In this document: positions 21,001-27,000 of the stretch, in pieces
How positions within the stretch are numbered: the stretch's first letter is position 1
How the letters are laid out: each line of letters opens with the position of its first letter
NCBI RefSeq assembly: GCF_048403405.1
Contig: NZ_CP183129.1
Strand: one strand, 5' to 3'
DNA from: Escherichia coli
GTDB lineage: Bacteria > Pseudomonadota > Gammaproteobacteria > Enterobacterales > Enterobacteriaceae
DNA length: 64,000 nucleotides
Position numbers: made by a program

Positions 21001-24000
21001 GTGCATCGCGGGGCGGAACATACCTTCGATATTTCTGCCGATTTGCAAGAACTGGCAAATACTAATGTCACCGTTGTTTGTGCCGGTGCAAAATCTATTC
21101 TCGATTTAGGATTAACAACAGAATATTTAGAAACCTTCGGTGTGCCGTTAATTGGCTATCAGACAAAAGCGCTGCCTGCGTTTTTCTGCCGTACCAGCCC
21201 ATTTGAAGTTAGTATTCGCCTTGATAGTCCCACGGAAATCGCTCGTGCAATGGCGGTGAAATGGCAAAGCGGTCTGAACGGTGGCCTGGTGGTGGCAAAT
21301 CCGATCCCGGAACAGTTTGCGATGCCGGAACACACTATCAATGCGGCGATCGATCAGGCGGTAGCTGAAGCTGAAGAGCAGGGCGTTATTGGTAAAGAAA
21401 GCACACCGTTCCTGCTGGCTCGTGTTGCTGAACTGACTGGCGGTGACAGCCTGAAATCCAACATCCAGCTGGTGTTCAACAACGCCATTCTGGCGAGCGA
21501 AATTGCCAAAGAATATCAGCGTCTCGCGGGTTAATTTCTGACGGGCAGAAAGCCGTCGCCCGTACTCATCAAGCATACCAAAACCTGGCGCTGACGCCGG
21601 GTTTACTGGCATGAAGGGAAAATCATTATGGATATAATGAGAAGTGTTGTGGGGATGGTGGTGTTACTGGCAATAGCATTTCTGTTGTCAGTGAATAAAA
21701 AGGGCATCAGTTTGCGCACGGTTGGAGCCGCACTGCTGCTGCAAATCGCTATTGGTGGCATCATGCTCTACTTCCCACCGGGAAAATGGGCAGTAGAACA
21801 GGCGGCATTAGGCGTTCATAAAGTGATGTCTTACAGTGATGCCGGTAGCGCCTTTATTTTTGGTTCATTGGTCGGGCCGAAAATGGATGTCCTGTTTGAT
21901 GGCGCGGGCTTTATCTTCGCCTTTCGCGTACTCCCGGCGATTATCTTCGTCACTGCGCTCATCAGCCTGCTGTACTACATTGGCGTGATGGGACTGCTGA
22001 TTCGCATTCTTGGCAGCATTTTCCAGAAAGCTCTCAACATCAGCAAAATCGAATCTTTTGTTGCGGTTACCACTATTTTCCTCGGGCAAAATGAGATCCC
22101 GGCGATCGTTAAACCGTTTATCGATCGCATGAATCGCAACGAGTTGTTTACCGCAATTTGTAGCGGGATGGCGTCCATTGCTGGTTCGATGATGATTGGT
22201 TATGCCGGAATGGGCGTACCAATTGACTACCTGTTAGCGGCATCGCTGATGGCGATCCCTGGCGGGATTTTGTTTGCACGTATTCTTAGCCCGGCAACCG
22301 AGCCTTCGCAGGTCACATTTGAAAATCTGTCGTTCAGCGAAACACCGCCAAAAAGCTTTATCGAAGCAGCGGCGAGCGGTGCGATGACCGGGTTGAAAAT
22401 CGCCGCTGGTGTGGCGACGGTGGTAATGGCGTTTGTCGCAATTATTGCGCTGATTAATGGCATTATCGGCGGAATTGGCGGCTGGTTTGGTTTTACCAAT
22501 GCTTCTCTGGAAAGTATTTTTGGCTATGTGCTGGCACCGCTGGCGTGGATCATGGGTGTGGACTGGAGTGATGCCAATCTTGCGGGTAGCCTGATTGGGC
22601 AGAAACTGGCGATTAACGAATTCGTCGCTTACCTGAGTTTCTCCCCATACCTGCAAACGGGCGGCACGCTGGAAGTGAAAACCATTGCGATTATCTCCTT
22701 TGCGCTTTGTGGTTTTGCTAACTTTGGTTCTATCGGTGTTGTCGTTGGCGCATTTTCGGCTATTTCGCCTAAACGCGCACCGGAAATCGCCCAGCTTGGT
22801 TTACGGGCGCTGGCAGCAGCAACGCTTTCCAACCTGATGAGCGCGACCATTGCCGGGTTCTTTATTGGTTTAGCTTGAGTTTCATTGCCGGATGTACGCG
22901 CTTATTTAGCGTCACATCCGGCAATCGCTCTATTGCAAATAATTTTTACTGCATCATCCCTGAGAATTTATTTTCCGGGTCCATCTCCAGTGCCAGTCCT
23001 GACAACTGCTTTCTGTTTTTAATTAGATACCCTTTCTTGCTTTTAATTAATAAACCGTCGTGAATGAATTGCGCTAGAACATATAAAAGATGTCGATAAG
23101 AAACGCCTAAATACTCTGCCGCTTGCGTATGCTTTTCGTGATAAAGATCACCTTCCTGCGAGAGTAATATAAAAGCTGCCAGGCGATTCACTAACGGAAA
23201 TGATTGATTCTGAGTTAAAGAAACAATATTGCGATAATTTTTATGGCTTAAGGTGACGCAGAGTTTTCGTAAAAATAGCGTGTCGTTTAATAACAGCGGA
23301 CGGTAATGTTTCATAGGGAGCGCAAGGCACCAACACTCTTCAATAGCCTGTACCGCACGCGGTTCATGGTCTTTGTCGATTAACTCAATCTCGCCAATAA
23401 AACAGGGAGCGGCAAAGAAATCGATCAGCGACACGCGACCATTAGCTAGCGTGGCGTAAAGCCTGGCGCGGCCTCGCGTCAGGTAAAACAGCCAGGACGG
23501 CTGTTGCCCTTCCTGCACAATGTAGTCACGCGCTAAAAAATGAAACAGCCGCGTATCGGCTGAAACATCCGTTGAAAAGCAATCCTTAAACGCGGATTCA
23601 CTCATCAATTGCTGCTTAAGGTCATTATTGTGGATTTCTTTCACGATGTTTATCCGCTATGAGATTTCTCATATTTAGCATACTTACGCTGTTGTTAAGA
23701 TTCAATCATCGGCCCGGTCGAATTTTCTTTGCTGTAGAAAAAATAACGCAACTGGAAACAGAGGAAATAAACAATGGAAAAGAGAAAAATTATTCTGGAT
23801 TGTGATCCGGGTCATGATGATGCTATTGCCATAATGATGGCAGCGAAACATCCGGCAATAGATTTATTAGGCATCACCATTGTGGCGGGTAATCAGACGC
23901 TTGATAAAACATTAATTAATGGCCTGAATGTTTGCCAGAAACTGGAGATTAATGTTCCGGTTTATGCGGGGATGCCACAGCCCATTATGCGTCAACAAAT

Positions 24001-27000
24001 CGTTGCCGATAATATTCACGGTGAAACCGGACTGGATGGCCCGGTATTCGAGCCGCTGACCCGCCAGGCAGAAAGCACTCATGCGGTGAAATATATCATC
24101 GATACCCTGATGGCAAGCGATGGCGATATCACTCTGGTGCCGGTTGGTCCGCTTTCAAATATCGCGGTGGCAATGCGCATGCAGCCCGCAATCCTGCCGA
24201 AAATCCGTGAAATTGTGCTGATGGGCGGCGCTTACGGTACTGGCAACTTTACGCCATCCGCCGAGTTCAACATCTTTGCTGACCCGGAAGCCGCACGCGT
24301 GGTGTTCACCTCCGGCGTTCCGTTGGTGATGATGGGCCTCGATCTCACCAACCAGACCGTTTGCACCCCGGACGTGATTGCCCGGATGGAAAGGGCAGGC
24401 GGCCCTGCCGGAGAGCTGTTCAGCGACATCATGAACTTCACTCTCAAAACCCAGTTCGAAAACTATGGCCTGGCTGGCGGCCCGGTGCACGACGCCACCT
24501 GCATCGGTTATCTGATCAACCCTGATGGCATTAAAACCCAGGATATGTACGTCGAAGTGGATGTTAACAGTGGCCCTTGCTATGGGCGTACCGTCTGCGA
24601 CGAGCTGGGCGTTCTTGGCAAGCCAGCCAATACCAAAGTCGGCATCACTATTGATACCGACTGGTTCTGGGGCTTAGTCGAAGAGTGCGTGCGCGGCTAC
24701 ATCAAAACCCATTAAGTGTTGATAACAAGCCGGGCCGGTATCGCAAGATGCAGGCCCGGCTATTTCTGATGGGCAGAAAGCCGTCGCCCAAAATGACATG
24801 AAGAGATAATAACTATGGATGTCATGAGAAGTGTTCTGGGAATGGTTGTATTGCTGGCAATTGCGTTTTTGCTGTCAGTAAACAAGAAGAAGATCAGCCT
24901 GCGTACCGTTGGCGCGGCGTTAGTGTTACAGGTCGTGATTGGCGGCATTATGCTTTGGTTACCACCAGGGCGTTGGGTCGCAGAAAAAGTCGCTTTTGGC
25001 GTGCATAAAGTGATGGCGTACAGCGATGCAGGTAGCGCATTTATCTTTGGTTCTCTGGTCGGACCGAAAATGGATACCTTATTTGATGGCGCAGGATTTA
25101 TCTTTGGTTTCAGGGTATTACCGGCAATTATCTTCGTTACAGCACTGGTGAGTATTCTCTACTACATCGGTGTGATGGGGATCTTAATTCGCATTCTCGG
25201 CGGTATCTTCCAGAAAGCATTAAATATCAGCAAGATCGAGTCATTCGTCGCGGTCACTACCATTTTCCTCGGGCAAAACGAAATTCCGGCAATCGTCAAA
25301 CCCTTTATCGATCGGCTGAATCGCAATGAATTATTTACAGCGATTTGTAGTGGCATGGCCTCGATTGCTGGTTCGACAATGATTGGTTACGCTGCACTGG
25401 GCGTGCCTGTGGAATATCTGCTGGCGGCATCGTTAATGGCGATCCCCGGCGGGATCTTGTTTGCCCGCCTGTTAAGCCCGGCTACCGAATCTTCGCAGGT
25501 TTCCTTTAATAACCTCTCTTTCACCGAAACTCCGCCAAAAAGCTTTATCGAAGCAGCGGCGAGCGGTGCGATGACCGGACTGAAAATCGCCGCAGGTGTG
25601 GCGACAGTGGTGATGGCATTTGTTGCAATAATTGCGTTGATTAACGGTATTATCGGCGGCGTTGGCGGCTGGTTTGGTTTTGAACATGCCTCGCTGGAGT
25701 CCATTTTAGGTTACCTGTTGGCTCCACTGGCGTGGGTGATGGGGGTTGACTGGAGTGATGCGAATCTTGCCGGGAGTTTGATTGGACAGAAACTGGCGAT
25801 TAATGAATTTGTCGCTTACCTCAATTTCTCACCTTATCTGCAAACAGCTGGCACTCTGGATGCTAAAACCGTGGCGATTATTTCCTTCGCGTTGTGCGGT
25901 TTCGCTAACTTTGGTTCTATCGGGGTGGTGGTGGGGGCGTTTTCTGCGGTTGCGCCACACCGTGCGCCGGAAATCGCCCAGCTTGGTTTACGCGCGCTGG
26001 CGGCGGCGACACTTTCTAACCTGATGAGTGCCACCATTGCAGGATTCTTTATTGGCTTAGCGTAGTGCGCGATTTATGAGCCGGATAAGACGCGGTCAAG
26101 CGTCGAATCCGGCAAGATTGTTACACCATCGGCACTAATGAAAGCGCGTTATCGGCAGACAGGGTAGGGTTGTTTAAGCTGCCGCTGGCGCGTGAAATTG
26201 CCGCGCAGGCCATCGCAAAACGGGCGCTGTCACGGAAATTGTTTCCTTCCAGAAAGCTATATACCAGGCCCGCCATAAAACCATCGTCAGCACCAAAACT
26301 GTCTACTGTCGTATGCGCTGGTGCGGTCAGCAAAAATTGTTCTCCATCCTTTTCGCTGCAATAAACTGACTCATCGGGCAAATAAACAAACAGTTGCTGA
26401 ACGCCTTGCTGATGCAACGCATTCACTGCGGTATTACGGTCAGCATCGCTGGTGATCGCCTGTCCCCATAAAATTTCCAGCTCCGGTAAAGTGGGTTTCA
26501 GGGTGTGAATATGCGCCAGCCAGTGTTTGATTTTGCCCGCTTTGAATTCTGAAACGGTATCGACAAACACCGGGATTTCATCAGCGAGGGTAAAGACCCA
26601 CTCCAGCGCCTCGGCTGTCAGGTTGCAATCAGCCAGTACCACGCCCGCATGACGAAGTAAATCGCGCGACCCGTTCAGTAGTTGCGGTGTCAACTGTTCC
26701 AGCAGATGGGTATCGTTAATCGCCAGCACGGTTTGATCGTCTCGATTGGCAATTGCCAGATACGTCGATGTGCTTTGACCATGTAAACGAACGCAGCCGG
26801 AGACATTCACGCCGGCGCGGCGCGTTTCTTCCAGGAGCATTTCGCCATAAAAGTCATCGCCAATCACTGAAAGCAAATGGACGTCGCGGCCTAACAGCGC
26901 CAGATTGTGGGCGATATTGCGTCCAACGCCGCCTGCCGAGCAATGAATTGTACCGGGATGAGAAGCCGCTTGCGGGTAACGGATATCCGCCATCCCGCGA

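Follow-up and report, generated by a model that had tools for sequence, protein, structure and literature searches.

The stretch of DNA analysed here, referred to as the window, comprises 64 kb of an Escherichia coli genome (contig NZ_CP183129.1) and includes the fruA...nfo region, in which two genes for nucleoside transporters, psuT and nupX, are each preceded by almost the same short intergenic sequence, hereafter called the box. The subject of this report is the box, together with the small stem-loop, H1, with which it largely coincides. Open reading frame (ORF) listing and searches with NCBIfam and Pfam profiles yielded a gene order that agrees with the MG1655 annotation:

19667-20608, plus strand: psuK, called by ORF, NCBIfam and Pfam and by the MG1655 annotation; upstream of the psuT leader
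20596-21534, plus strand: psuG (PF04227); upstream of the psuT leader
21628-22878, plus strand: psuT, a CNT (NupC family) transporter of 416 amino acids (TIGR00804), also named psuT in the MG1655 annotation
22946-23644, minus strand: yeiL, CRP/FNR family; partner of nupX in the second module
23774-24715, plus strand: rihB, pyrimidine nucleosidase; partner of nupX in the second module
24815-26065, plus strand: nupX, a CNT transporter of 416 amino acids (TIGR00804)
26121-27209, minus strand: yeiI, HTH_24 plus PfkB kinase; grouped by synteny with psuKGT and not with rihB-nupX
27212-28069, minus strand: nfo, called by ORF and profile

These calls agree with an earlier note on this DNA, which had described psuK-psuG-psuT and yeiI/nupX/rihB as two duplicated modules, each with a 416-amino-acid transporter having the N- and C-termini that it quoted. 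PsuT and NupX are 89% identical and both match TIGR00804 over their full length with scores above the cutoff of 442 bits (516.5 and 502.2 bits, respectively), as expected for CNT transporters. The paralogy of PsuK and YeiI as PfkB kinases (38% identity) is likewise borne out, as is the N-terminal winged helix-turn-helix domain of YeiI, which occupies residues 1-48 (PF13412). The idea of two paralogous sets holds in full only for the transporters: they are the only close paralogs, because psuG and rihB are not homologous, and the actual order of the second set is rihB, nupX and then yeiI on the opposite strand. The grouping of yeiI with nupX and rihB has to be given up, as across genera yeiI accompanies psuK-psuG-psuT and yeiL accompanies rihB-nupX. 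To our knowledge, psuKGT is the only characterised bacterial route of pseudouridine catabolism and almost nothing is known about the regulation of either psuKGT or rihB-nupX, the latter being a usually silent and poorly understood pyrimidine-nucleoside module. NupX displays weak transport of uridine and cytidine, and for PsuT no activity was reported with uridine, cytidine or xanthosine (PMC11241209).

The shared box and its specificity

A direct sequence search located the box twice:

21535-21561, plus strand: box, psuT copy, TTTCTGACGGGCAGAAAGCCGTCGCCC
24763-24789, plus strand: box, nupX copy, TTTCTGATGGGCAGAAAGCCGTCGCCC

The near-identity of the box before both transporter genes, remarked on in the earlier note, was confirmed, the 27-mer TTTCTGAYGGGCAGAAAGCCGTCGCCC being present at these two positions with 26 of 27 bases alike. 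When up to three mismatches were allowed, these were the only two matches in the 64 kb, and none of 100 shuffles of the window gave any match. The coding sequences of psuT and nupX agree at 79.5% of all positions and at only 54.7% of third codon positions, and an agreement of 26 in 27 bases in non-coding DNA is therefore far above neutral expectation. In a global alignment of the two transporter regions the box stands out as an island of similarity, as the sequences upstream of it do not align, and downstream of it a gap of 41 nt opens in the nupX leader before similarity returns at the Shine-Dalgarno (SD) region. Its similarity goes beyond both chance and neutral retention, and the box is a specific element common to the two transporter leaders.

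As a GC-rich intergenic inverted repeat, the box might be suspected to be a dispersed element resembling repetitive extragenic palindromic (REP) sequences or bacterial interspersed mosaic elements, or else a generic terminator repeat, and a REP-like palindrome does lie nearby, at 26079-26124 between the convergent genes nupX and yeiI, where naRNA4/REP models score 21-23 bits against a gathering threshold of 59.5. Of 5,426 complete E. coli genomes, 5,424 contain a query of 40 nt around the box, at 10,814 places altogether and with a median of 2 and a maximum of 3 places per genome, and this is not the pattern of a REP or terminator family spread over many unrelated loci, the outcome that the earlier note had said would undo its proposal. 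A covariance model built on the leaders was run over 858 kb (the window plus 89 comparison loci), and only these leaders scored, with 30-47 bits on the plus strand and at most 13 bits on the minus strand; neither this model nor the search with three mismatches found a further match in the window. An Rfam cmscan of positions 19000-28500 with E values up to 10 gave no credible family match at either box: the sole match over the box, isrJ, is at chance level (18.9 bits against a gathering threshold of 37, E = 8.9), and the only, weak, naRNA4/REP match is the palindrome mentioned above, away from both boxes. Unlike REP, the element is confined to a single locus, and its membership in a dispersed repeat family is extremely improbable.

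A pattern scan of metagenomes with YGGGCAGNNNGCSGTCGCCCR returned, among the matches listed, 80 loci, of which four are Escherichia-like contigs with gene context. The other 76 listed loci lack gene context and lie nearly all in DNA of 0.56-0.76 GC; 75 of them have no homolog of any gene of the locus, and for L119 (comparison loci are designated by L and a number) a weak rihB-like match of 27% was found about 3 kb away. One listed match at about 50% GC, L115, sits inside an ORF. The motif GGGCAGAWW, with 12 matches in the window against 2.3 expected, was considered as a box-related signal and discarded: about half of its matches are within genes as G-Q-K or G-Q-I codons, one of them in psuT, and the dinucleotide shuffles behind the expected number do not model G-Q codon bias. 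Two hairpins between fruA and psuK, at 19253-19285 and 19399-19422, have near-identical stems (GGGCAG...CUGCCC), the second being a canonical terminator with a T-run, and the occurrence of GGGCAGA in both of these hairpins and in the box is probably a coincidental resemblance.

The H1 stem-loop across genera

The conserved unit is not the 24-mer quoted in the earlier note. It is a hairpin of 23 nt, shifted by a few bases, and the 5' part of the box, TTTCTGA, is specific to Escherichia. The two copies of this hairpin, H1, are as follows:

21541-21563, plus strand: H1, psuT copy; stem ACGGGC (21541-46)/GCCCGT (21558-63), loop AGAAAGCCGTC (21547-57), from minimum free energy folding and covariation; covariance model score 46.6 bits
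24769-24791, plus strand: H1, nupX copy; stem TGGGC (24770-74)/GCCCA (24786-90); covariance model score 43.1 bits

The psuT copy begins 6 nt past the stop codon of psuG, with 64 nt from its end to the ATG of psuT, and the nupX copy, which has the same loop and a U-A in place of C-G at pair 2, ends 23 nt before the nupX ATG. The consensus of H1 is a stem of six base pairs, (A)YGGGC/GCCCR(T), closing a loop of 11 nt, AGNNNGCSGUC, in which G2, G6, C7, G9 and U10 are near-invariant. Minimum free energy structures of the single sequences include H1 in both leaders, and the whole intergenic regions fold with z scores of -3.5 and -4.7. Two alternative foldings of the box, the stem GACGG/CCGTC and the palindrome TTTCTG/CAGAAA, were rejected, as they are present in Escherichia only and are out of register in Citrobacter and other genera.

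For comparison, close relatives of PsuT were collected by protein matches from species-representative genomes, together with their contigs. Nearly all collected loci, from about 12 enterobacterial genera, have this hairpin ahead of the transporter gene, after psuG as well as after rihB; carriers include several lineages of Escherichia, Citrobacter, Klebsiella, Kluyvera, Enterobacter, Leclercia, Buttiauxella, Superficieibacter, Entomohabitans and further contigs. H1 is always on the sense strand and, in either gene context, 23-66 nt ahead of the ATG of the transporter gene, apart from L215, where an insertion places it at about 105 nt. Mean pairwise identity is 0.82 in the H1 stem and 0.74 in the H1 loop, as compared to 0.40 in the 5' flank and 0.56 in the linker that follows; a second hairpin further downstream, H2, reaches 0.80, the segment from H2 to the SD 0.63, and the 5' arm of a third hairpin, H3, 1.00. 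As third codon positions, the neutral reference, stand at 0.56 and the neighbouring segments at 0.40-0.63, H1 and H2 (0.74-0.82) are islands of constraint.

Covariation was analysed with 19 homologous leaders and with a set of 23 aligned H1 hairpins to which imperfect ones had been added. In the larger set 93.8% of the cells are paired, compared to 32-53% when the partner arm is slid, and double changes that preserve pairing occur at four of the seven pairs: A-U/G-C at pair 1, C-G/U-A with U·G intermediates at pair 2, G-C/A-U at pair 3 (Enterobacter and Leclercia) and G-C/A-U at the inner pair. The covariation score of 0.240 exceeds the shuffled value of 0.152 ± 0.018 and is reached by none of 500 shuffles, a control that is not a probability and that overstates significance, as the sequences are related. 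Within E. coli, the 5' arms ACGGGC (K-12), GUGGGC (ATCC 25922) and GCGGGC (strain 4848) all face GCCCGU. One-sided changes in the stem give G·U pairs on the sense strand and so make sense only on the sense RNA strand. With compensatory changes and with strand and position fixed across species, the box behaves, in these 23 related sequences, as a conserved RNA element, in line with the suggestion of the earlier note that it might be one.

The same note had also thought of a regulatory element in general, and the box could be a DNA operator bound by YeiL, by YeiI or by some other nucleoside regulator, or could belong to an internal promoter of the transporter gene. The Escherichia box holds the palindrome TTTCTG-N5-CAGAAA as well as weak -35- and -10-like hexamers (CTGAYG, 17 nt, CAAAAT or CGTACT), the conserved loop bases could in principle represent protein contacts on DNA, and a peak for the RpoS holoenzyme in genomic SELEX (systematic evolution of ligands by exponential enrichment) lies, by coordinate conversion, inside psuG at about 21311, some 220 bp before the psuG stop codon (PMC5493296). 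This peak hints at an internal stationary-phase promoter for psuT. However, neither palindrome nor hexamers are conserved outside Escherichia and a simple promoter scan was empty at either box, and a conserved promoter overlapping H1 was rejected on these grounds. The conserved loop is asymmetric, in contrast to a palindromic operator, and what is maintained in the stem is complementarity and not sequence, G·U states included; the G·U pairs that arise from one-sided changes in the sense RNA would correspond to A·C on the complementary strand. Because the box is found with both modules, in loci without yeiI and in loci without yeiL, it is unlikely to be an operator specific for YeiI or YeiL, and we regard a DNA-level role in general as unlikely.

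Across genera each of the two modules is found without the other, and the two occur in either order. The arrangement psuKGT-yeiI-nfo alone is present in E. albertii, Citrobacter, Klebsiella michiganensis, Leclercia and L211, and yeiL-rihB-nupX alone in Buttiauxella, Citrobacter portucalensis and Klebsiella spallanzanii; Kluyvera and Entomohabitans possess both modules in the E. coli order and Enterobacter hormaechei both in reversed order. These rearrangements of the fruA...nfo region (19667-27209; L002-L005, L012, L081-L089 and L211-L215) are consistent with recombination between the paralogous transporter genes. Instead of two duplicated modules, the locus comprises two independent cassettes, psuKGT plus yeiI and yeiL-rihB-nupX, which have a transporter-plus-leader unit in common and exchange sequence by gene conversion. 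As modules are shuffled while H1 stays with the transporter, H1 is tied to the transporter gene, with which it is inherited whichever gene sits upstream. Among the three loci with rihB-nupX only, the full stem is present in L081 and L086 and a GGGC/GCCC core of 4 bp in L215.

This tie also bears on the possibility that H1 is the 3'-end structure of the upstream transcript, either a terminator or an exonuclease barrier protecting psuKG or rihB mRNA. In psuT-type loci H1 starts 6-10 nt past the psuG stop codon, and GC-rich intercistronic hairpins are known in general to stabilise upstream mRNA segments. Nevertheless, when modules rearrange H1 tracks the transporter and not the upstream gene, and rihB usually has a separate hairpin at its end, with H1 45-75 nt away from the rihB stop codon. 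No U-run is present after H1, where GCCCGUACUCAUC or GCCCAAAAUGAC comes next, and the terminator scan gave no call for H1; the sequence beyond the hairpin, GUACUCAUC in the psuT leader and AAAAUGAC in the nupX leader, is not that of an intrinsic terminator. An exonuclease barrier, furthermore, would need no conserved loop bases. A role at the end of the upstream message is thus quite improbable.

In more distant psuT loci of Serratia, Hafnia and "Klebsiella sp. BIGb0407" (73% identity), the covariance model finds no H1. The same loci (L006:3830-3990, L007, L008 and L009) contain another long conserved hairpin between psuG and the transporter gene, CCUGAAAGG...CCUUUCAGG or CCUGAAAGGUGG...CCUUUCAGG, which is preceded by AAAUAAAAA and whose upper stem looks compensatory.

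The remaining leader and sequence exchange between psuT and nupX

Eleven leaders with a mean column identity of 81% make up a long-leader set, for which RNAalifold predicts a consensus of three hairpins, H1, H2 and H3. The features of the window's leaders outside H1 are:

21581-21604, plus strand: H2, AAACCUGGC-GCUGAC-GCCGGGUUU, with A-tract, GC stem and a run of 3-4 U; from RNAalifold on the 11 long leaders
21613-21619, plus strand: psuT SD GAAGGGA, read from the sequence and from its distance to the ATG (21628)
21623-21640, plus strand: H3, UCAUUAU-GGAU-AUAAUGA, with the psuT AUG (21628-30) in its 5' arm; from folding and RNAalifold
24728-24761, plus strand: GC-rich terminator-like hairpin after rihB, followed by UAUUUCU and located just 5' of H1; from folding and leader comparison
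24793-24825, plus strand: nupX initiation hairpin, formed by AUGACAU (24793-99) and AUGUCAU (24819-25), with the SD and the AUG (24815) between its arms

The part GCCGGGTTT of H2 is invariant in the 11 long leaders. H2 resembles a weak attenuator and shares with Rho-independent terminators and attenuators a GC-rich stem, a loop of 4-6 nt, a run of 3-4 U and an A-tract flank. Its U-run is short, and a simple terminator scan that needs at least five T in eight gives no call; H1, unlike an intrinsic terminator, has no U-run at all. The 5' arm of H3 is 100% conserved in the same leaders, and conservation of its 3' arm is partly a protein constraint, as this arm is coding. The sequence of the hairpin after rihB varies between genera, with some hairpin usually at that place. 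Several nupX leaders, including that of the window strain, have lost the linker and H2 and kept H1, which is therefore an independent module. Two further ideas were rejected. When the 5' arm of H1 was blocked in constrained folding, H2 stayed intact in every leader and no antiterminator alternative appeared, which is not what switching between H1 and H2 would give, and a mini-ORF upstream at CATGAAGGGA is better read as an SD, its ATG being absent from leaders of Klebsiella, Enterobacter, Leclercia and K. spallanzanii.

In the window's nupX leader the distance from H1 to the ATG is 23 nt, 12 nt shorter than the 35 nt in a sister Escherichia lineage, L001 (24790-24814 compared to L001:7167-7201), and one base differs in the nupX SD region between MG1655 (ATCACT) and the window (ATAACT), from which it follows that the window is not from MG1655. 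L001 is the 'Escherichia coli' representative SCPM-O-B-8794 of GTDB. Its psuT and nupX genes depart from those of the window at about 18-21% of third codon positions, far above the normal level within a species; either L001 is a cryptic Escherichia lineage or the locus is unusually divergent or recombinant.

The earlier note had explained the shared element as retained after duplication. Retention is only a part of the explanation, as the near-identity of the copies also stems in part from ongoing gene conversion between psuT and nupX, the footprint of which is found in the window:

22360-22406 (psuT) and 25547-25593 (nupX), plus strand: conversion tract, 47 nt identical in both genes

The tract holds a run of S-F-I codons that psuT and nupX have in common only within E. 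coli and that is not present in nupX of the sister lineage L001, whose own psuT/nupX pair has an identical tract of 137 nt elsewhere. The E. coli nupX hairpin combines the Escherichia psuT-type loop and 5' flank with a nupX-type 3' flank, and nupX leaders of other genera have the loop AGTRAGCGGTC. These data invite the view that the box has no function of its own and that its copies are alike only through recent duplication of psuT/nupX or through gene conversion reaching into the leader, given the tracts of 47 and 137 nt and given that the E. coli nupX copy carries the psuT-type loop AGAAAGCCGTC and the TTTCTGA flank, unlike nupX leaders elsewhere. However, synonymous sites have diverged almost to saturation, in comparisons among all genera as well as of the paralogs (about 50-58% identity), and yet the core is kept over some 12 genera against 0.56 at such sites and 0.40-0.56 in the adjacent leader, stem changes are compensatory, and the three loci with rihB-nupX only still have either the full stem or, in L215, its core. 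A box without function is accordingly a rather remote prospect, and the identity of 26 in 27 bases between the E. coli copies reflects purifying selection on the hairpin combined with local gene conversion.

Decay of the locus was seen in several strains. A large internal deletion in nupX is present in ATCC 25922 (L216:7486-7551) and in a metagenome contig, and in both the box beside the deleted gene is kept with two substitutions, giving a TTTATGA flank and an AGAGAG loop. Strain 13C1065T has lost psuG-psuT-yeiL and part of rihB beside an IS1 element, and its nupX hairpin has a C-to-A change that breaks the stem. Further coordinates of decay are L098:8938-9050 and L218:2600-4154.

Possible roles of H1

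H1 exists as a conserved, covarying, strand-specific and locus-specific element linked to the transporter gene. With somewhat better than even confidence, the box itself is the form taken in Escherichia by a conserved, cis-acting stem-loop RNA in the leader of PsuT/NupX-type CNT transporter genes, with control of transporter expression as its probable role. We infer from sequence comparison that the operon mRNA includes H1, and every function proposed for it below has the same basis. The most fitting description of H1 is a cis-RNA hairpin, new and narrow in its distribution, in the leaders of this gene type; no description of such an element was found in the literature on the operons, Hfq links and untranslated regions (UTRs) of these genes.

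Besides the relatedness of the 23 sequences mentioned above, several observations weigh against the interpretation of H1 as a regulatory RNA hairpin. The hairpins were located through the invariant GGC/GCC core and a pairing filter. Pair 1 is open in 7 of the 23 sequences, pair 2 is broken in L211 and L215 and pair 3 in one E. coli strain, and H1 alone is a weak fold (z = -1.9 and -1.4). In the psuT leader of Entomohabitans an unrelated longer hairpin occupies the place of H1, and such a replacement is more easily reconciled with a generic role of a hairpin than with recognition of a specific sequence. The operons can be dispensed with and are often found in decay, examples being the nupX pseudogene of ATCC 25922 and the IS1 deletion in one strain. 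No candidate factor binding H1 was identified. In the literature searched no transcript data were found for the psuT and nupX intergenic regions, and a Term-seq supplement has no 3' end in them (PMC7815308). Finally, the "5' UTR" coordinates of psuT and nupX in a TRIC-seq supplement were rejected as mapped starts, as both equal the intergenic length minus 40 nt and so represent a heuristic.

As a cis-acting RNA hairpin, H1 can be compared with several known systems. The 5' hairpin of ompA, the processing site of papBA and the REP stabilisers of malEFG are, like H1, short GC-rich hairpins between cistrons or in a 5' leader, and H1, like these stem-loops of mRNA stability and processing, lies directly upstream of a cistron for a membrane protein and could decouple the distal gene from the proximal one; elements of that type, however, need no conserved loop, whereas the loop of H1 is near-invariant. 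The ribonucleic antiterminator (RAT) sites of BglG/SacY and the loops bound by PyrR resemble H1 as small hairpins with conserved loops, followed by a terminator-like hairpin (H2, about 20 nt further on) and then the gene, and as in PyrR systems the genes concern nucleoside or pyrimidine metabolism. Unlike RAT and PyrR sites, H1 does not overlap the following hairpin, has no alternative antiterminator pairing in silico and persists without H2, and we know of no sequence similarity of H1 to either. Candidate riboswitches and RNA motifs before nucleoside transporter genes have in common with H1 a conserved structured leader before a CNT transporter and conservation above neutral, but H1, with its 23 nt, its persistence without the rest of the leader and its lack of an Rfam family match, is unlike a multi-helix aptamer. 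In a riboswitch, aptamer and expression platform would be inherited together, and in short nupX leaders H1 is alone.

The proposed mechanism is that transporter expression is set by the leader at a post-transcriptional level, without dependence on the enzyme genes upstream. The ancestral long leader would have consisted of H1, then H2, then H3. Within it, H1 may be a hairpin whose sequence is specifically recognised by an RNA-binding factor acting in trans or by a pairing partner, a role favoured over that of a passive stabiliser because the loop bases are near-invariant, and once the message has been processed between cistrons H1 possibly also shields the 5' end of the transporter segment; H2 would limit read-through, and H3 would throttle initiation by base-pairing the AUG.

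One candidate for a pairing partner of the loop is found in the psuT coding sequence:

21801-21806, plus strand: GGCGGC, psuT codons 58-60 (Q-A-A), complementary to H1 loop positions 6-11 (GCNGUC); candidate long-range partner

The complementary stretch corresponds to nt 174-179 of the psuT coding sequence, and the variable loop base and the third base of Ala59 form C:G in E. coli and E. albertii, U:A in L001, G:C in Citrobacter, Klebsiella, Enterobacter and L211, G:U in one Citrobacter (Cu233) and a broken C:C in Leclercia. All six positions are paired in 9 of 11 psuT-type lineages, compared to 5 of 11 for the next-best window within the first 600 nt. With permuted loops the observed value was reached at the site in 20 of 2000 cases, and in 2 of 200 when any position within the first 600 nt counted, with phylogeny uncontrolled in these counts. 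Among nupX-type leaders, loop pairing with the coding sequence is present in 1 of 10 only. It is, on this evidence, unlikely that H1 serves as a specific operator hairpin and contacts a distant site through its loop; such a contact would mean either pairing between leader and coding sequence or a shared site for a trans-acting RNA or protein, tuning a pseudouridine transporter, and would define a new class of small RNA motif in Enterobacteriaceae.

A leader hairpin that follows its transporter gene through module rearrangement would offer an easily mutated handle on post-transcriptional control, and H1 is a candidate for a new entry in an RNA-family database, with a narrow scope of one gene family in one bacterial family and known here from sequence. 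Elsewhere in the region, psuK has been reported as a target of RprA (bioRxiv 2025.09.11.675593), and a Term-seq 3' end lies antisense to nupX at MG1655 position 2253044.

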